Of a stretch of 64,000 nt of DNA, positions 2,722 through 23,780 are shown piece by piece. The DNA is from Escherichia coli. GTDB lineage: Bacteria; Pseudomonadota; Gammaproteobacteria; Enterobacterales; Enterobacteriaceae. The stretch lies in assembly GCF_030384885.1 (NCBI RefSeq), contig NZ_CP128613.1, one strand, 5' to 3'. The number at the start of each line of letters is the position of its first letter. Within the stretch, counting starts at the first letter, position 1. The translations under genes and the position numbers were made by a program. Under the pieces are notes generated by a model. It saw only the letters and a list, made by a program, of their open reading frames with translations. It was not told the DNA's origin and did not search any database.

Positions 2722-3498
2722 TTATTCTTCAGTTTTTTCGCTTTCTGCTTCAGCGTCGTTTTCCTCTTCCCGGTTTCGACCCTTACCAACGTAAAAGCGT
2801 GAGAAGAAGACACCAATTTCAAACAAGCAGTACATCGGGATCGCCAGCAGCGTTTGCGAGAAGACATCCGGCGGCGTCAGCAACATCCCGACGACGAATG
2901 CGCCAACCAGCACATACGGACGTTTTTTGCGTAAGTCTTCTGGCGAGGTAATCCCCATCCAGCACAGCAACACAATTGCCACCGGCACTTCAAAGGAGAC
3001 ACCAAACGCCATAAACAACGCCATAACGAAGCTTAAATAGCTGGCGATGTCGGTGGATACCTGTACCCCTTCCGGCGCGGTATTGGCAAGGAAGCCAAAT
3101 GCCAGAGGAAAGACCACAAAGTAGGCGAACGCCATGCCGATATAAAACAACAGAGAGCTGGAAACCAGCAGCGGCACCACCAGGCGACGTTCATGCTTAT
3201 ACAGCGCTGGGGCGATAAACGCCCACACCTGATAGAGAATCACCGGCGCTGACAGAATCAGCGACACCATAAAGGTCAGCTTGATCGGCGTAAAGAACGG
3301 TGAGGCCACGTCGGTGGCGATCATCGTTGAACCTTGCGGCAACTGCTTGATCAATGGCGCGGATACCAGGTGATAGATGTCATTGGCGAAATAGACCAGA
3401 CACAGGAATATCACGATCACCGCGATAATGCAGTTCAGCAGACGCTTACGCAGCTCAATCAGGTGCGTGATAAGCGGTTGAGTATCTTCTACAGACAT
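2722..3498 (-). CDS. tatC: Twin-arginine translocase subunit TatC
   Basis: 258 aa multi-pass membrane protein [21 protein letters not shown]... Confidence 0.95.
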
Positions 3499-3500
3499 GT

Positions 3501-4016
3501 TTACGGTTTATCACTCGACGAAGGGGAAGGTGCAGCGGTTTTCGGTTCAGCGTCCGCAGCTGGTTTTACCGCCGGCTCTGGCGTGGTTTCTGGCTTCTGT
3601 TGCGGCGAACTGGCCTGCGTTTGTGCAGCGGCAGGCGTTACGCCTTCATGCGCAGCTTCATTATCTTTCACCACCGGGTTATGGATGGTGTGCGCTTCAT
3701 CGCTCGCCTTTTCAGGATCGTTTGCAACGTAGGAACGCTTCATCGACTCCGCGGCCTGGCGTAGTTCATCCATCGACGCTTTCAGTTCGGGCGTCAGGTT
3801 AGTGAGGCTCGCCTTTTCAACCTTTTTCAGGCTGTCCTGAAACTCCTGGAGTTTTAACTCCTGGGTCAGTTCGTTCTGCACCGTTGTCGCCAGTGAACGC
3901 AACGCGCGAATCCAGCCAGCTACCGTTTTTACCGCCACAGGCAGTCGTTGCGGCCCCAGAACGACGAGGCCGATGATGAACACCAATAGCAGTTCGCTAA
4001 AACCGATATCAAACAC
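3501..4016 (-). CDS. tatB: Twin-arginine translocase subunit TatB
   Basis: 171 aa [26 protein letters not shown]... Confidence 0.95.
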
Positions 4017-4019
4017 GGA

Positions 4020-4289
4020 TTACACCTGCTCTTTATCGTGGCGCTTCGCGTCTTCTGTTTTAGCCTGTTCCTGATTCGTATCCGCCTGCTTATCGGCGAT
4101 AGTTTTCGCAGTAAAATCAGCATCCTGACTGGTTTTATCCTGCTTTGGTTCATCATCGCTCATTGCTTTTTTAAAGCCTTTGATCGACGCACCAAGATCG
4201 GAACCGATGGAGCCGAGCTTTTTGGTGCCAAAAAGCAGTACAACGATGACGGCAATAATCAATAACTGCCAAATACTGATACCACCCAT
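4020..4289 (-). CDS. tatA: Twin-arginine translocase subunit TatA
   Basis: ORF 4020..4331; start trimmed to Met15 ([27 protein letters not shown]...), giving the 89 aa TatA. Confidence 0.9.
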
Positions 4290-4367
4290 ACATGTTCCTC
4301 TGTGGTAGATGATGATTAAACAAGGCCGCATTATACGTTACACGGCCCGCCTTGAGCGATGAAAAAA

Positions 4368-6610
<2,243 letters not shown>

Positions 6611-16996: not shown

Positions 16997-18145
16997 ATGA
17001 GTGATATTATCTACCTGACCATAACCGGAGAACAACACGGATGTATTTCCTCTCGTTGTGGAACGAGCACATCAATAGGTAATCGCTGGCAGATTGGTCA
17101 TGAAGATGAAATCTTCGCATTCTCGCTCTCTAATAGTATTACGAATACAGGAAAAGGGTCACATTTGCATGGCCTTAGTTTCTGTAAGTTGATTGACAAA
17201 AGCTCCCCGTTACTTATTAACGCTATTAACAATAACGAGCAGTTGTTCATGGAGTTTGACTTCTATCGGATCAATAGATTTGGTCGATGGGAGAAATATT
17301 ACAACATTCAACTCCGCGGCGCGCTCTTATCAGCAATCAATCACCTGTTTACGGAGAACAATCTGGATACAGAAACCATCACTGTCAGTTATGAATATAT
17401 ACTCTCCAGGCATCTGATTGCTAATACTGAATTTAGTTATTTGGCATTTCCCGATAACTACAATCGTCTGTTTATACCACGGCCAAAAACTAAAGATGAT
17501 AATGGCCTCAAAACACTCAATAGTAAAGCTGTTGGCAGACTGCTTGCTGCTGGCGGCATATACAATGGGAATATCGAAGGATTCAGGGAAACAGCAAACA
17601 AGTTGGGGGGAGATGCACCTGCTGGTTACGATCAAGTTATGGATAACAAAGGGTTACTCATCGCTGGTGCTTCAATAGTTGCTGGAGCAGTTCTGGGGAG
17701 AATGAGACTCCCTGATTTGGAATCACTTGAGCATTTCGGAGCCAGAGGAGCAGTATCAGGAAGACCATTTAATCCCGACCTTGCCGGTGGTCCAATAGAA
17801 AATCTGACGACAGATGGCGTAACAATCAACAGGGAAGGTATCGCTATTGTTGAAAAACACATAGCCAGATTTGGTCATGACCCTGTAAATGAAGTGATGA
17901 TCAATAGACTGAAAGACATTGAGAAAGGAAAAATCCCCCCAGAACAAGTAGATCTTAACTTCTATACTCATGAATGTCGGGAATATCAGCGTTACTGTAA
18001 TCTTGGTTGGGAAACAGGACAACCTGATGGTGACGCAGGCTATGCACTCTGGAATCATACGCATACTGCTACTCTAGAAGATTATAAACTTAAGGGAGAA
18101 CTTAATGACTTATACCACCAGGACGCACTTGACTATGATAACTGA
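16997..18145 (+). CDS. Hcp (T6SS tube protein TssD) N-terminal domain fused to a C-terminal extension of unknown function, Hcp-ET-like; not associated with a T6SS gene cluster
   Basis: 382 aa; residues 1-155 carry the Hcp hallmark ...HGLSFCKLIDKSSPLLINAINNNEQLFMEFDFYRI...; residues about 156-382 are an extension with no Hcp counterpart; RBS AAGGA upstream; AT-rich. Confidence 0.75.
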   Translation: MSDIIYLTITGEQHGCISSRCGTSTSIGNRWQIGHEDEIFAFSLSNSITNTGKGSHLHGLSFCKLIDKSSPLLINAINNNEQLFMEFDFYRINRFGRWEKYYNIQLRGALLSAINHLFTENNLDTETITVSYEYILSRHLIANTEFSYLAFPDNYNRLFIPRPKTKDDNGLKTLNSKAVGRLLAAGGIYNGNIEGFRETANKLGGDAPAGYDQVMDNKGLLIAGASIVAGAVLGRMRLPDLESLEHFGARGAVSGRPFNPDLAGGPIENLTTDGVTINREGIAIVEKHIARFGHDPVNEVMINRLKDIEKGKIPPEQVDLNFYTHECREYQRYCNLGWETGQPDGDAGYALWNHTHTATLEDYKLKGELNDLYHQDALDYDN

Positions 18146-18380
18146 AACTGAAATTAACATACTGAAAGTTATGGCTGAGAAAGATATAAACTGGAACTGG
18201 ATGAATCTCGATCGCACACTATCTATAAGGCAAATTCCAGGATTCGGTAATGTTGTTAACATTGTTAACAAATTAGCTAACGAGGGTTTGGTTATTATTG
18301 AGGATAGCGGACATAAGTCTATGCCTCACTACCACGTTACTGATAAGGGATACAATCTCGTGAAAAGTGAGAATAAATAA
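18105..18380 (+). CDS. Small protein overlapping the 3' end of the Hcp-fusion gene; candidate cognate immunity protein (alternative start at 18135)
   Basis: 91 aa ORF with GGGAG RBS; overlaps the upstream stop, typical of toxin-immunity pairs; no recognisable family. Confidence 0.5.
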   Translation: MTYTTRTHLTMITETEINILKVMAEKDINWNWMNLDRTLSIRQIPGFGNVVNIVNKLANEGLVIIEDSGHKSMPHYHVTDKGYNLVKSENK

Positions 18381-18666: not shown

Positions 18667-20928
18667 TCACCCCCGACGCAAATTCTGCGCCGCCTGCACC
18701 ATGTTCGCCAGTGCCGCGCGGGTTTCTGGCCAGCCGCGCGTTTTCAGACCACAGTCCGGGTTGACCCACAGACGCTCTGCCGGAATGCGTTTTGCCGCTT
18801 TCTTCAGCAGGGCTTCAATCCATTCCACGCTCGGTACGTTTGGCGAGTGAATGTCATAGACGCCAGGACCGATTTCATTTGGATAATCAAACTCTTCAAA
18901 CGACTCCAGCAACTCCATGTCGGAACGCGAGGTTTCGATTGTGATGACGTCTGCGTCCAGCGCCGCAATCGAATCCATGATGTCGTTGAACTCGCAGTAA
19001 CACATGTGAGTGTGGATTTGCGTGTCATCTTTCGCTACGGCAGCGTTGATACGGAAAGCCTCCACGCCCCACTGGAGATAGGCATCCCAGTCGCTGCGAC
19101 GCAGCGGTAAACCTTCGCGTAGCGCCGGTTCATCAATCTGGATGATGCCAATTCCAGCGGCTTCCAGATCGGCCACTTCATCACGAAGCGCCAGCGCAAT
19201 TTGTTTGGCGATGGTTTCACGGCTGACATCTTCACGCGGGAACGACCAGCAGAGAATGGTCACCGGGCCAGTCAGCATCCCTTTCACCGGTTTGTCGGTC
19301 AGCGATTGCGCATACTTTGCCCACTCCACGGTAATCGGTGCCGGGCGGCTAACGTCACCAATGACAATCGGCGGTTTCACGCAGCGGGAACCGTAGCTCT
19401 GTACCCAACCGTTTTGTGTAAAGACAAAACCGTCGAGGTGCTCACCAAAGTATTCCACCATGTCATTACGCTCGGCCTCACCATGCACCAGCACATCCAG
19501 ACCCAGACGTTCCTGCTCAACAATGGCCTGCTTGATATGTTCTGCAATGCCCGTACGATAGTTGTTGGCGTCGAGATTACCCTTTTTGAAATCCAGACGC
19601 AGGGTACGGATTTCTGTGGTTTGCGGGAAAGAGCCAATCGTGGTGGTCGGCCACGCGGGCAGTTTAAAACGCGCACGCTGGGCTTCAGCACGCACTTCAT
19701 AGACATTCGCACGCTGACTGTCCTGGGCGGTGATCGCCGCCAGACGCTTTTCTACTGCCGGATTATGTACACGAGTAGAGTGACGACGCGCCTGAATCGG
19801 TGCACTCCACTCTGCCAGAGCTGCCGTGTCACCACTGTTCAGCGCATCGCGCAGCAATGCCAGTTCATGGCATTTTTGCAGGGCGAAGGCAAACCAGCTT
19901 TTCACTTCTGCATCAAGACGCGTTTCCACGCTCAGGTCGATAGGGCTGTGCAGCAATGAGCAGGAAGATGCCACCCACAAATCACGTTTGCCGACAATGT
20001 CCTTAATTTGCGCATATTTCTCGGTAAGATCGGCGCGCCAGACGTTACGACCATTGATAAGACCCGCAGACAGCAGCCAGTCAGAAGGCAGACGCTTGTG
20101 CAGTTCAGCAACGTCATCTTTACCATGTACGAGATCGACATGCAGCCCCTGAACAGGCAGCGCAGTAATGGTGTCGAGGTTTGGCGTTACGCCTTCAAAA
20201 TAGGTGGTCAGCAGCAGTTTCACCTGGCCCTGGAGCGCGTCGTAAGCGGGTTTATAGGCGTCCAGCCACGCCTGCGGCAGTTCCAGCACCAGTGCGGGTT
20301 CGTCGATCTGTACCCACTCAATGCCACGTTTTGCCAGTTCTGCCAACACTTGCTGATAAACCGGCAGAATGTCGTTTAGCAGGCTCAGGCGATCAAACTG
20401 TTCACCTTTCACTTTACCCAGCCACAGGTAGGTAACCGGTCCCAGCAGCACGGGCTTGACCTTGTGGCCCAGCGCCAGCGCCTCGTCCACTTCCTCCAGC
20501 AGCTGCGTCCAGGTCAGTTTGAACTGTTGGCCTTTAACGAACTCCGGCACCATGTAGTGATAGTTGGTGTTAAACCATTTGGTCATTTCCGCTGCCGCCG
20601 CAGGTTCGCCAGTCGGCGCACGTCCACGACCAATACGGAACAGGGTGTCGATATCTACCGAACCATCTTTGTTCTGATGACGTGGCGGAACGTTACCCAG
20701 CAGCAGACTGGTGGTCAGTACATGATCGTACCAGGCAAAATCGCCCACCGGCAGCAGGTCGATACCCGCTTGCTTTTGTTGATCCCAGTGACGAGCACGC
20801 AGTTCACGCCCTACCGCCAGCAGTTCTTCACGCGTGGTGTTCCCGGCCCAATAACTCTCTTGCGCTTTTTTCAGCTCGCGACGCAGGCCAACGCGAGGGA
20901 AACCGAGGGTGTGATTCAATATTGTCAT
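18667..20928 (-). CDS. metE: Cobalamin-independent methionine synthase
   Basis: 753 aa [30 protein letters not shown]... Confidence 0.95.
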
Positions 20929-21163
20929 TTTTCTTCCTCTAATTATATGTAAATCCTATGGATTTTGAATTTAGGGAAGGCGGCAAGTTTATTCATCCCC
21001 GGGAGCTTACTGAAGTAAGTGACCGGGGTGAAGAAACGCAGCCAACGCACCATAAATTTAAAAGACGAAGGATTTTAGCCGTCCAGATGTTTACACATCC
21101 ATAATTGGCGGTTACTGTATATTCCTCAAGCGCAAATTATTCATGCCGAAGTGAAGGACTTTC

Positions 21164-22117
21164 ATGATCGAAGTAAAACACCTGAAAACGCTACAAGCGT
21201 TGCGGAACTGCGGCTCACTCGCAGCCGCTGCGGCGACGTTGCATCAAACGCAATCCGCCCTGTCTCACCAGTTTAGCGATCTGGAACAACGCCTTGGCTT
21301 CCGGCTATTTGTGCGTAAAAGCCAGCCGCTTCGGTTTACACCGCAGGGAGAAATCCTGTTGCAACTGGCGAATCAGGTGCTGCCGCAAATCAGCCAGGCA
21401 CTGCAAGCCTGCAATGAACCGCAGCAGACGCGCCTGCGCATTGCCATTGAGTGCCATAGCTGTATTCAGTGGCTGACGCCCGCGTTAGAAAATTTCCATA
21501 AGAACTGGCCGCAGGTGGAGATGGATTTTAAATCGGGCGTGACGTTTGACCCGCAGCCCGCGTTGCAGCAGGGTGAGCTGGATCTGGTGATGACCTCCGA
21601 TATTCTGCCGCGCAGTGGCCTGCATTATTCGCCGATGTTCGATTATGAAGTGCGTCTGGTGTTGGCACCTGACCATCCACTGGCGACAAAAACGCGAATC
21701 ACGCCGGAAGATCTCGCCAGCGAAACGCTGTTGATTTATCCGGTGCAGCGTAGCCGACTGGATGTCTGGCGGCATTTTCTTCAGCCCGCAGGCGTTAGCC
21801 CGTCACTGAAAAGCGTCGATAACACCTTGTTGTTGATTCAGATGGTTGCCGCGCGGATGGGCATCGCTGCGCTACCGCACTGGGTGGTGGAGAGTTTTGA
21901 ACGCCAGGGTCTGGTGGTCACCAAAACCCTGGGCGAAGGCTTGTGGAGCCGACTGTACGCCGCCGTGCGCGATGGCGAGCAGCGTCAGCCGATTACAGAA
22001 GCGTTTATTCGCTCAGCGCGCAATCACGCCTGCGATCATCTGCCGTTTGTGAAGAGCGCGGAGCGACCCACTTACGATGCACCCACAGTGAGGCCAGGAT
22101 CACCAGCGCGCCTGTAA
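21164..22117 (+). CDS. metR: LysR-family regulator MetR
   Basis: 317 aa [45 protein letters not shown]... Confidence 0.95.
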
Positions 22118-22904
22118 TAAACGTTGGCCAGTGCGGCTGTTGGTGCCAGATAGCCAGGTTAACCAACAGCCCTGCCGGAACGTGCATATTATTCATAATG
22201 CCCAGCGTTCCGGCGTCCACCTGAGTCGCGCCGTAGTTCCACATAAAGTAGCCAATACCGGAAGCCACCACGCCAAGAAACACCAGAATGCCCCATTGCA
22301 GCGTGGTTTGCGGCATTTTCTGCGCATTTCCCAGCAAGAACCATGCAATCACCGCCACCAGGAACGCGCCAAGATAGAACCACGCAAAGGCGTTATGCTG
22401 CGGCATCGGGCGAGTTTCCATCAGGCGTTTGTAACCCACCATGCCGATGGCAAAAGTGATATTGGAGAGTTGTACCAGTAACAGGCCGGTCCAGAAGTGG
22501 TCGGTGACCTGATCATAGCGAATAATTCCGGCACCAATCACCGCCAACAAGGCGCTAAAAGCATAGCCCCAGCGCAGACGGCGCTTACTCATGATGTCAT
22601 AAATCAGCGTGATGTAGAGCGGAGTCAGTACGGTGAACAGCAACAGCTCGGAGACCGTCAGGTAGAGATAGGCGCGAAAACTCAGCATATACATCACGCC
22701 AAGCTGCATCGCGCCCACCAGCATATACAGGCCAACCGTTTTCAGGCTATTGCCACGGGTACGCAGAAACGGCAGAAACACGAGTGCCGCCAGGCCAACG
22801 CGCACCAGCACTGCAAAATAGCTATCGACGTGCCCCGCAAGGTACTCGCCATAAAAGCTAAAGGAGAAGGCCCACAGAATCGTGGTGATGATAAGTAGCG
22901 CCAC
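22005..22904 (-). CDS. yigM: Biotin transporter YigM (BioP), EamA/DMT family
   Basis: 299 aa 10-TM protein; 3' end overlaps the metR 3' end convergently by 113 bp. Confidence 0.85.
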
Positions 22905-22979
22905 AATGGAAAACTCTTTGATTAACGAGTATCCATTGTAGCGAAGTATCAGGTTGACAACTGACCAAATAAAGAACGA

Positions 22980-23780
22980 TTACGATAAATAGAGTTTACG
23001 CAGATAATGCGGCACCGCGTCTTCGGCATTAGTACCAATCACTTCCAGCTCCGGATGCAGATCTTTCAGACGCTGGTGCGCACTGCCCATAATGCAGCCT
23101 TTACCTGCCATCGACAGCATTTCGGCGTCGTTCATCCCGTCACCAAAGGCAATACAATCTTTCAGACTGTAGCCCAGTTTCTTCGCCACCGCTTCCAGGG
23201 CATGGCCTTTTGAAACGCCGCCCGCCATCACTTCCAGACAAGTTAGGGTAGAGAAACTGACATTGACGCGATCGCCCCAACGAGCGTTGATTGCCTGTTC
23301 CAGCGGCAGCAGTTGTTCATGAGAATCACAGGTGAAGAACACTTTACTGACGCCTTCCGGATCCAGTAATCCTGGCTCATACAGCGCATACTTGAACACC
23401 GCTTCTTTAAAAAAGCGCATCTCTTCCGGGCGGTGGCGATTCATAAACCATTCGTCGTCGCGATAAACGTTAGTAATGATGTCCGGGTTGTCGTTGACCA
23501 CGCCAAACAGATCGCTGGCAATGTCGCGATCCAGGTTATGAGCAAAAATCAGATTGCCATCCAGATCGTGAACACGCGCGCCATTGGAGGTAATCATGTA
23601 AGACTTAATCTCCAGATTATCGCGAATTTGCCCTACATCAACGTGGTGGCGACCGGTCGCAAACACAAAGTTAATGCCGCGCGCGGTGAGGAGCTTCAGA
23701 GTTTCTTTGGCGTAAGGGGATAACGTATGGTCGGGAGAAAGTAACGTGCCATCTAAATCAGACGCAACAACCTGGTACAT
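22980..23780 (-). CDS. yigL: HAD-family phosphatase YigL
   Basis: ORF 22980..23906; start trimmed to MYQVVASDLDGTLLSPDHTL (266 aa; HAD DxDGT motif). Confidence 0.85.
   Translation of the reverse strand: MYQVVASDLDGTLLSPDHTLSPYAKETLKLLTARGINFVFATGRHHVDVGQIRDNLEIKSYMITSNGARVHDLDGNLIFAHNLDRDIASDLFGVVNDNPDIITNVYRDDEWFMNRHRPEEMRFFKEAVFKYALYEPGLLDPEGVSKVFFTCDSHEQLLPLEQAINARWGDRVNVSFSTLTCLEVMAGGVSKGHALEAVAKKLGYSLKDCIAFGDGMNDAEMLSMAGKGCIMGSAHQRLKDLHPELEVIGTNAEDAVPHYLRKLYLS

Follow-up and report, generated by a model that had tools for sequence, protein, structure and literature searches.

The convergent genes metR and bioP (yigM) of Escherichia coli share 113 bp of coding sequence at their 3' ends, and this arrangement is very probably an ancient, genuine tail-to-tail overlap of two unrelated functional genes that stems from genome compaction and is no dedicated regulatory element. 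Within the 64,000-nucleotide stretch of E. coli DNA analysed here (the window), the overlap occupies positions 22005..22117 on both strands. The overlap is already known, being annotated, published and conserved in enteric bacteria; the published work lacks codon-position constraints, tail disorder and conservation depth, which the present analysis adds. With the folded parts of the two proteins predicted to abut and only expendable tails doubly encoded, the locus offers a clean textbook case of a tolerated long antisense overlap.

The ORF list places metR at 21164..22117 on the plus strand (317 aa, ATG start, TAA stop; a LysR-type activator of metE and metH) and bioP at 22005..22904 on the minus strand (299 aa, GTG start, TAA stop; a biotin transporter of the DMT/EamA family). 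The initial annotation had described a 113-bp convergent coding overlap of metR (+) and yigM (−) that would disappear if either ORF ended earlier; its exact length is borne out by the ORF coordinates, and neither frame contains an earlier in-frame stop. The comparison with K-12 that it proposed gives the same result, as the MG1655 RefSeq annotation carries a 113-bp overlap between bioP (b3827, 4011076..4011975) and metR (b3828, 4011863..4012816), with 0 differences from the window in the overlap sequence. A 100%-identical strain annotated by RefSeq/PGAP likewise has metR at 3065..4018 and bioP at 3906..4805, again overlapping by 113 bp. Both ORFs are real protein-coding genes of known families and functions and form a genuine convergent pair. 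More specifically, MetR matches the NCBIfam MetR equivalog NF011950 over residues 1-317 of 317 (740 bits) and contains the Pfam domains HTH_1 (residues 5-63) and LysR_substrate (residues 86-288), and a structure of its DNA-binding domain is available (5FO5). YigM matches TIGR00950 over residues 11-273 (310 bits), its Pfam EamA match extends to residue 275, and the RefSeq product name for bioP is 'biotin transporter'.

The coordinates define the phase of the overlap as (123:132), in which codon position 1 lies opposite codon position 1 and position 3 of each gene faces position 2 of the other. In the phase used by yigM, stops occupy just 9 of the 318 codons on the antisense strand of metR, leaving open runs of 4-57 codons. 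Because this phase is so poor in stops, the open frame alone is no evidence, and the case rests on conservation. A chance open frame was rejected as a full account, since the conservation of the overlap exceeds chance.

The region is present in 5,422 of 5,426 complete E. coli genomes. A set of 84 loci was assembled from 80 species in a GTDB scan together with Yersinia, Rahnella and Dickeya, 81 of these loci having a full alignment; a single genome scan gave only relatives with at least 90% identity. The overlap measures 113 bp in 79 of the 84 loci, 116 bp in two, 98 bp in two and 95 bp in one. In every one of these 84 loci the yigM stop falls at metR-relative nucleotide 842, and the interval from the metR start to that stop is free of indels. 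The overlap is thus conserved beyond close relatives, in Enterobacteriaceae (80 species) and in Yersinia, Rahnella and Dickeya, and the earlier suggestion of a conserved backbone feature proves correct in the K-12 annotation, in at least three families of Enterobacterales and in the literature. Two more distant metR loci have neither the overlap nor a bioP gene beside metR. Of 81 loci, 78 encode a MetR of 317 aa, and nearly all YigM proteins have 299 aa; neither gene runs past the 3' end of its orthologues through a lost stop or a frameshift. Distant MetR proteins measure 296-312 aa, so that the E. coli MetR tail exceeds theirs by about 5-20 residues at most.

The AF2 models divide the overlap into two zones. 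Zone A (22005..22063) specifies, on the plus strand, the last folded part of MetR (residues 281-300, comprising most of the helix 276-292 and the strand 296-298); its minus strand specifies the YigM tail, modelled with low confidence (residues 281-299), and the stop. In zone B (22064..22117) the minus strand encodes residues 263-280 of the last YigM transmembrane helix (259-280), and the plus strand the low-confidence MetR tail (residues 301-317) and the stop. In the MetR model, block-mean pLDDT falls from 95 over residues 291-300 to 46-51 from residue 301 onward, residues 303-313 scoring below 50. The YigM model has only moderate confidence (mean pLDDT 74), and its helix 259-280 is followed by values below 50 for residues 283-299. 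PDB 4AB5 aligns to MetR residues 87-296, PDB homology ends at 296, and the family models stop at MetR 288 and YigM 273-275. Both C-terminal tails are therefore predicted to be disordered. Under this model the folded parts of MetR and BioP would abut back-to-back in the DNA at about 22064, with no overlap between them: 22005-22063 on the plus strand would carry the last helix and strand of MetR (to about residue 300), 22065-22118 on the minus strand would carry the last transmembrane helix of BioP (to about residue 280), and each protein's poorly conserved tail of 17-19 residues would use the antisense of its partner's final folded element.

Codon-position diversity, computed with the zones split at 22057/22058, follows this division. 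Between-species pi at metR position 3 in zone A is 0.27, compared with 0.05 and 0.04 at positions 1 and 2; at yigM position 3 in zone B it is 0.33, compared with 0.10 and 0.11. Because the wobble position faces the second codon position of the partner, synonymous drift in the constrained gene shows up as residue replacement in the tail that overlaps it. MetR has a mean pairwise identity of 0.93 for residues 1-280, 0.98 for residues 299-302 and 0.55 for residues 303-317, and YigM one of 0.69 for the tail beyond the junction versus 0.86 for the body. Both halves of the overlap nevertheless show a significant reduction in synonymous diversity. The zone A value for metR position 3 compares with 0.38 elsewhere in the gene, only 1.1% of equal-sized windows being as low, and the zone B value for yigM position 3 (0.34 in this comparison) compares with 0.42 elsewhere, no window being as low. 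Purifying selection is thus detectable in both frames inside the overlap and is weak on the distal tails themselves; dual constraint exists, yet it is modest.

A doubly constrained core lies at 22056..22070, where MetR S-A-E-R-P (298-302) is encoded opposite YigM W-V-A-P-R-S (279-284). Nearly all bases of this core are invariant, four-fold-degenerate sites included; among the 81 loci, 22058-22070 is invariant or nearly so with the exception of 22063, which varies in 9. Codon position 3 of YigM V280 is C in 81 of 81 loci, whereas all other conserved Val residues use three or four codons. Constraint in both frames would accordingly be confined to this junction of about 15 nt and a few scattered sites.

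The stability of the overlap length follows from the fact that both stops are set by conserved residues of the partner. The bioP stop TAA (22005..22007, minus strand) is made of MetR Phe281 (TTT) and Ile282 (ATT) and is TAA in 81 of 81 loci; a second in-frame bioP stop lies 4 codons further, at 21993-21995. The tandem metR stops TAA-TAA (22115..22120, plus strand) are forced by the YigM Phe262-Ile263-Thr264 codons on the opposite strand, and TAA or TGA occupies the usual metR stop position (22115-22117) in 80 of the 81 fully aligned loci. MetR Phe281 is TTT and Ile282 is ATT in every one of the 81 loci, while all 14 other conserved metR Phe/Ile codons are polymorphic. Stop maintenance was rejected as the sole reason for the invariance of Phe281, as a change from TTT to TTC would give TGA, which is still a stop. 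YigM Glu299 and the TAA stop are also invariant, and together with the frozen Phe281/Ile282 codons this suggests that the tails, or the RNA, are not wholly free of selection.

Such frozen sites raise the question of whether both C-terminal tails are functional (BioP ...S-E-COOH; MetR motif AERP..D.PT..P.S), so that selection on protein locks the overlap in place, an explanation that we regard as possible but doubtful. Keeping YigM Glu299 and TAA invariant holds two synonymous sites of MetR fixed, and MetR A299-P302, 98% identical, freezes YigM V280 (GTC), A281 (GCT) and P282 (CCG). Between 74 and 78 of the 81 loci retain MetR D305, T308, P311 and S313, by way of an unusual fixation of YigM H276 as CAT, L273 and L270 as CTG, and V268 as GTG, and the depressed position-3 diversity in both zones would also be expected. 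However, no other part of either protein is as poorly conserved as its tail past the junction (identity 0.55 for MetR and 0.69 for YigM, the bodies reaching 0.93 and 0.86), and the modelled pLDDT of the tails falls below about 50. The tails are also naturally shortened in several lineages: MetR is reduced to 311-312 aa in Rahnella, Dickeya and one Citrobacter, and YigM alleles of 284-285 aa, ending in ...WVAPHS or ...WVAPRSA, form clusters of 42 and 66 sequences. Judging from these sequences, both tails would tolerate loss. One of the short-YigM clusters is named Salmonella Gaminara. Distant MetR homologues end at the E. coli equivalent of about residue 296 to 311, and their tail sequences are unrelated. 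A Keio-derived ΔyigM::Km strain grows in mineral-salts medium with biotin. Under the standard Keio design its yigM allele would presumably truncate MetR after about residue 287, and if it does so the MetR tail is not essential.

The initial annotation had also pointed out that RNA reading through either gene is antisense to its partner, which is true by geometry. From this point a regulatory device may be envisaged, in which mutually antisense mRNAs, polymerase collision or RNase III cleavage would couple the expression of the two genes reciprocally. We consider such a device improbable. Any full-length metR and bioP transcripts are bound to be complementary, the arrangement is conserved across Enterobacterales, and both genes show stronger conservation at synonymous sites inside the overlap than outside it. 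Biotin synthesis consumes S-adenosylmethionine, which makes a coupling between methionine and biotin physiologically plausible. The lower synonymous diversity is, however, more simply explained by constraint from the other reading frame, because the reduction is strongest at the junction, a stretch conserved in both proteins. Ten supplementary tables listing RNase III products captured by p19, which were consulted for double-stranded RNA, name neither metR nor yigM, and convergent 3' overlaps are generally about 38-fold poorer in such RNA than divergent 5' overlaps. In the Term-seq tables of Adams et al. 2021, no 3' end is assigned to metR or yigM. The literature searched contained no published test of whether the expression of one gene alters the level of its partner. 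Thus, antisense interference between metR and bioP is possible but unsupported, and we infer that the overlap has no regulatory role; a new question would arise only if antisense coupling were shown experimentally.

The single transcript-level datum found in the published literature concerns the bioP strand. A Rho-dependent termination region on the bioP strand (−) peaks at 22276, mapped from K-12 position 4011704 with an uncertainty of about ±800 nt. In supplementary file 2 of Adams et al. 2021 this region (K-12 plus strand) has a Rho score of 5.07 (p = 1.3e-12), with 98 reads upstream and 21 downstream without bicyclomycin (BCM) and 300 and 326 reads with it, the signal having a resolution of about 800 nt and coming from one growth condition. 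Termination of bioP is thus Rho-dependent, as seen in this bicyclomycin-sensitive drop in coverage, and the drop would limit RNA antisense to metR. That Rho removes most transcription of the bioP strand in this region also weighs against an antisense device. Each transcript would end at putative sites inside the partner gene, and on the bioP strand Rho would terminate transcription after the ribosomes leave at the stop codon, keeping antisense RNA low.

Given that there is zero intergenic DNA, no intrinsic terminator is accommodated between the genes, and a consensus scan of 20900-23100 found none at the junction (21900-22400). The sole terminator-like site in the scanned interval, at 21718-21730, lies inside metR and is within chance expectation. 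Two inverted repeats on the plus strand (22135-22171 and 22174-22214) are found just 3' of the metR stop within the bioP CDS; they are perfect in E. coli, and when folded they carry no U-tract. A bidirectional intrinsic terminator at the junction was therefore rejected, there being no terminator-like site, no U-tracts on the E. coli hairpins and no covariation. Over the 84 aligned sequences, hairpin pairing amounts to 82.3%, and shuffles give 81.7%; in helix 2, three of the pairs cannot form in 50-55 of the 84. In the first hairpin after the metR stop, 8 of 10 pairs are kept in at least 75 of the 84 sequences, a retention that is compatible with a role at the RNA level and is not evidence for one. 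A selected RNA structure downstream of metR was likewise rejected, as pairing is close to that of shuffles and the wobble positions vary without covariation. An Rfam search at a permissive threshold returned nothing in the overlap. A sub-threshold Rfam match to V_AS5 was seen in the metE-metR intergenic region.

A narrower form of the argument attributes the fixed geometry and the lowered synonymous variation to selection at the RNA level, with metR, which is induced at low methionine, and bioP under reciprocal antisense or collision control that links methionine/SAM supply to biotin uptake; Rho would then set the reach of each transcript into the partner gene. This we judge to be quite improbable.

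Comparison with known systems places the pair more precisely. The closest case is the K-12 pair itself (b3828/b3827; Côté et al. 2016, PMC5120140), which consists of the same genes with an identical 113-bp sequence, the window copy being without differences. Among prokaryotic convergent pairs in general (Rogozin et al. 2002 via PMC2478687; PMC2174442), the tail-to-tail orientation, the phase and conservation across genera are shared features; where convergent genes overlap by at least 5 nt, the phase (123:132) is the commonest (49%; Lillo & Krakauer 2007, PMC2174442; PMC2478687). According to the same sources, convergent overlaps between well-characterised genes exceed 60 bp in only 178 of 3,035 cases; 54 of these were judged possibly real, and for the most part their conservation is limited to close species. 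The metR-bioP pair differs from the usual convergent pairs in that its 113 bp belong to this rare long tail of the distribution and are conserved across three families.

Two E. coli precedents lend some appeal to an antisense device at convergent genes. The neighbours mscL and arfA (Morra et al. 2023, PMC10070815) are likewise convergent and gammaproteobacterial, with complementary transcript 3' ends, and their antisense regulation and RNase III processing have been shown experimentally; unlike in mscL-arfA, the complementarity of metR-bioP lies in the coding sequence of both genes. Programmed head-on polymerase collision and bidirectional terminators at convergent pairs (Wang et al. 2022, 10.1101/2022.10.23.513370) likewise involve no space for separate terminators. 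That mechanism, however, needs a stem-loop between the gene boundaries, and at metR-bioP there is no intergenic DNA, no terminator-like site and no covariation-supported hairpin, so that no conserved stem-loop marks a point of collision or termination.

An annotation artefact, in which one ORF would end, or be translated only, upstream of the overlap, can be dismissed even though mis-annotation accounts for most annotated prokaryotic overlaps above 60 bp (124 of the 178 convergent ones among them): the stops are read directly in the sequence with no earlier stop in either frame, the lengths of 317 aa (78 of 81 species) and 299 aa (essentially all) are conserved, the Pfam domains run to MetR 288 and YigM 275, inside the overlap, a metR deletion reaching 22096 abolishes BioP function, and convergent overlaps are the only class in which genuine long overlaps have been found.

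The tail-to-tail arrangement matters chiefly in practice, for genetic work on either gene. Deletion, insertion or recoding in the last 113 bp of one gene harms its partner, a standard metR knockout entails loss of biotin uptake as well, and phenotypes ascribed to metR or yigM need to be interpreted with the particular allele in mind. The overlap was reported by Côté et al. 2016 (PMC5120140), who designed deletions around it, demonstrated the function of BioP and found that deletion of metR phenocopies the loss of yigM; the inactivation of yigM by a metR deletion in K-12 is thus already published. The primers of that study for deletion of yigM spare metR, their homology arm mapping to 22089-22138, and the arm for deletion of metR maps to 22097-22146, removing YigM from about residue 270.

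The convergent 3' ends of metR, which encodes a LysR-type regulator (21164-22117, + strand; 317 aa, ATG start, TAA stop), and yigM or bioP, which encodes the biotin transporter BioP/YigM (22005-22904, - strand; 299 aa, GTG start, TAA stop), share 113 bp across the two strands (22005-22117). This length, given in the initial annotation, is exact according to both the ORF list and the sequence, and the earlier stop that would have refuted the overlap is found in neither frame. The comparison with K-12 proposed there gives the same result: in MG1655, b3827 bioP (4011076..4011975, +) and b3828 metR (4011863..4012816, -) overlap by 113 bp whose bases are identical to those of the window. The PGAP annotation of an E. 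coli strain 100% identical to the window (metR 3065..4018, bioP 3906..4805) likewise yields a 113-bp overlap. By megablast the region is present in 5,425 of 5,426 complete E. coli genomes, with at least 80% query coverage in 5,422, and metR, bioP and yigL are annotated. Among the few complete genomes in which it is interrupted is that of E. coli Z135-6 (NZ_CP159632.1), where 42% of the query is matched, in two segments, and metR appears in the annotation as a 'hypothetical protein' plus a 'LysR family transcriptional regulator', which suggests that the gene carries an insertion.

On the metR antisense strand, in the phase of yigM, 9 stops occur in 318 codons and open runs extend over 4-57 codons, and on the yigM antisense strand, in the phase of metR, open runs reach 75 codons; the 37-codon open antisense frame here is unremarkable. 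Overlaps this long are nevertheless rare: of 3,035 convergent overlaps between well-characterised genes in 338 genomes, 178 were longer than 60 bp, and only 54 of the 178 were rated possibly real, mostly conserved only in close species (Pallejà et al. 2008). The feature that exceeds chance is conservation of the overlap. A scan with MetR of one genome per GTDB species returned 80 loci at a threshold of at least 90% identity, and in every scanned locus the last YigM codon lies at a constant distance from the metR start (tblastn). A frame walk over 81 loci found overlaps of 113 bp in 78, 116 bp in two (MetR of 318 aa) and 98 bp in one (Citrobacter gillenii, MetR of 312 aa). The arrangement persists outside the Enterobacteriaceae: Yersinia has a 113-bp overlap, Rahnella one of 95 bp (MetR of 311 aa) and Dickeya one of 98 bp (MetR of 312 aa), with the yigM stop at metR-relative nucleotide 842 in all three. 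Over the 84 loci the overlap is thus 113 bp in 79, 116 bp in two, 98 bp in two and 95 bp in one, and the conserved backbone feature suspected from the sequence is real, old and stably kept, as far as Yersinia, Rahnella and Dickeya.

In two more distant loci, L085 and L086, bioP does not adjoin metR. A yigL-like hydrolase converges on metR in L085 (MetR 61% identical) across a 30-bp gap (L085:3437-3466) and bioP is absent; the alternatives are that an ancestor of the Enterobacterales acquired bioP by insertion between metR and yigL, and that the L085 lineage lost it. The neighbours of metR in L086 (MetR 51% identical) are unrelated genes. The C-termini of distant MetR homologues, which have lengths of 296-312 aa, are unrelated in sequence.

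The distribution of variation within the overlap is revealing of how coding constraint is divided. The two genes meet in the (123:132) phase, in which position 1 faces position 1 and position 3 of each gene faces position 2 of its partner, a phase shared by 49% of convergent overlaps that are 5 nt or longer, more than any other (Lillo & Krakauer 2007, PMC2174442). The 81 loci full-length across both genes were aligned without gaps, and nucleotide diversity (pi) was computed per column by codon position. Within 22005-22057 it is 0.05, 0.04 and 0.27 at metR positions 1, 2 (yigM position 3) and 3 (yigM position 2), the pattern expected of selection on MetR alone; within 22058-22114 the corresponding values of 0.10, 0.33 and 0.11 point to selection on YigM alone. 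Mean pairwise amino-acid identity is 0.93 for MetR residues 1-280, 0.94 for 281-298, 0.98 for 299-302 and 0.55 for 303-317, and for YigM it is 0.86 (1-261), 0.81 (262-279), 0.87 (280-283) and 0.69 (284-299). With each wobble position opposite a second position, silent changes that accumulate in the constrained gene become amino-acid changes in the tail riding on the opposite strand, which accounts for the poor conservation of the tails.

The predicted structures of the two proteins divide at nearly the same point. In MetR, HTH_1 occupies residues 5-63 and LysR_substrate residues 86-288, and the NCBIfam MetR equivalog covers all 317 positions; the DNA-binding domain of the E. coli protein has been solved (5FO5, residues 1-92), and the regulatory domain of Neisseria meningitidis MetR (4AB5) aligns to residues 87-296. 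An AlphaFold2 model of MetR (52 sequences, mean pLDDT 91) ends its folded part with a helix over 276-292 followed by a strand over 296-298, with a block-mean pLDDT of 95 at 291-300, 46-51 from 301 and below 50 at 303-313. YigM has been described as a secondary transporter with ten helices (Finkenwirth et al., PMC4049904; Côté et al., PMC5120140), in which the EamA match reaches residue 275 and TIGR00950 spans residues 11-273; its model, of only moderate reliability (32 close sequences, mean pLDDT 74), ends the last helix (259-280) shortly before a stretch with pLDDT below 50 (283-299). The predicted folded ends fall at about 22063 (+) for MetR and 22065 (-) for BioP, so that the folded portions would abut without overlapping, and each low-confidence tail would be encoded antisense to the last folded element of the partner.

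Conserved residues in each protein fix the end of the other gene, and for this reason the overlap keeps its length. The bioP stop TAA (22007-22005, - strand) derives from the MetR codons Phe281 (TTT) and Ile282 (ATT), with a second in-frame stop four codons beyond; the metR stop TAA (22115-22117, + strand) and a second in-frame TAA (22118-22120) derive from BioP Phe262, Ile263 and Thr264. The tails are not quite free of selection. Diversity at metR position 3 in the first region (0.27 against a mean of 0.38) is below 98.9% of equal-sized metR windows, and that at yigM position 3 in the second region (0.34 against a mean of 0.42) is below every other yigM window. At 22004-22011, the codons TTT (Phe281) and ATT (Ile282) occur in all 81 loci, against polymorphism at all other conserved Phe (9/9) and Ile (5/5) codons of metR. 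The ATT codon retains the terminal Glu299 of BioP, itself invariant, and TTT makes the bioP stop TAA, not TGA; since both end translation, the need to keep a stop does not account for the invariance of TTT. At the junction, 22058-22070, encoding MetR A299-E300-R301-P302 and, on the opposite strand, YigM W279-V280-A281-P282-R283, is essentially invariant at all three codon positions, except for 22063, which varies in 9 of 81 loci. Four-fold-degenerate sites are fixed here: position 3 of YigM V280 is C in 81/81 loci, against three or four codon variants at each of the other conserved yigM valines.

Both tails are shortened in nature. MetR ends at 311-312 aa in three genera, and BioP alleles of 284 aa (...WVAPHS) and 285 aa (...WVAPRSA) lack the last 14-15 residues (proteins P0345 and P0346). 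The shorter allele stands for a cluster of 42 sequences and the longer for one of 66, which bears the name Salmonella serovar Gaminara; yigM also stops early (...VAPHS*) in MGYG-HGUT-00110 (L062:3845-3900). The yigM allele of the Keio collection, presumably of the standard design, would cut MetR after residue 287. A ΔbioH ΔyigM::Km strain derived from that allele is able to grow in a mineral-salts medium that contains biotin (Finkenwirth et al., PMC4049904); if MetR is indeed so cut, methionine prototrophy does not require its tail. Deletion of metR is synthetically lethal with bioA and also sensitises cells to a BioA inhibitor, the sensitivity arising because yigM is disrupted as well (Côté et al., PMC5120140). 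Mapped onto the window, the primers of that study retain only 22097-22146 in the right homology arm of the metR deletion, and BioP is therefore cut off near residue 270, midway through its last transmembrane helix; the arm of the yigM deletion (22089-22138) spares the entire metR coding sequence. The deletions were evidently planned around the overlap, which is standard annotation and has been both described and put to use in print.

No intergenic DNA separates the genes, a consensus scan found no terminator-like site near the junction, and Rfam has no match within the overlap. Perfect inverted repeats with 10-bp and 9-bp stems begin 18 nt past the metR stop, inside bioP (22135-22214, +), and would allow two strong hairpins in E. 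coli RNA (22135-22171 and 22174-22214; z = -2.3), both without a U-tract. The repeats are imperfect in most other genera, and the hairpins were rejected as selected structures because pairing over the 84 sequences (82.3%) is at the level of column shuffles (81.7%) and 50-55 of the 84 leave the wobble positions of helix 2 unpaired. On the bioP strand a Rho termination region has been mapped, with its best coordinate at K-12 position 4011704 (score 5.07, p = 1.3e-12; Adams et al. 2021, PMC7815308), corresponding to about 22276 on the - strand. Reads in 800-nt windows were 98 upstream and 21 downstream without bicyclomycin, and 300 and 326 with it (Adams et al. 2021, PMC7815308); the downstream window extends over the last part of bioP and some 530 nt antisense to metR. 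On the simplest reading, Rho would halt transcription of bioP near its stop codon or beyond it, and so limit antisense metR RNA.

The best-supported account is a passive one of compaction, partitioned coding constraint and factor-dependent termination. It ranks above a regulatory device in which antisense RNA or transcriptional collision couples methionine regulation to biotin uptake; although precedents exist in other systems, nothing in the sequence, alignments or published transcript tables considered here supports such coupling, and we regard it as very improbable. Neither gene appears by name in the remaining supplementary tables of Adams et al. 2021 (PMC7815308) or in any of ten supplementary tables listing RNase III products captured by p19, from a study in which such products were about 38-fold fewer from convergent 3' than from divergent 5' overlaps.

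Several minor observations concern the compared loci and the flanks. In Kluyvera genomosp. 3 YDC799 the yigM tblastn match falls into two parts in different frames (L049:4549-4707; residues 12-64 and 64-299), which suggests a frameshift, from either a pseudogene or an assembly error. The locus titled Chryseobacterium sp. 18061 has an Enterobacteriaceae-type metR-bioP arrangement, with a MetR 91% identical to that of E. coli and nearly identical to that of the Citrobacter sp. 18056 locus, and its assembly is probably mislabelled or contaminated. The metE-metR spacer (20954-21072, +) gives a weak Rfam match to the Vibrio antisense RNA V_AS5, probably by chance (28.7 bits where the gathering score is 96; E = 0.002), and a 48-aa ORF lies at 20958-21104 within the same intergenic region. 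To the left of metE, L001:1-281 of the identical strain (about 18100-18380 in the window) holds a tssD pseudogene of type VI secretion, disrupted by a frameshift, alongside a small hypothetical gene, at a position occupied in K-12 by ysgA.
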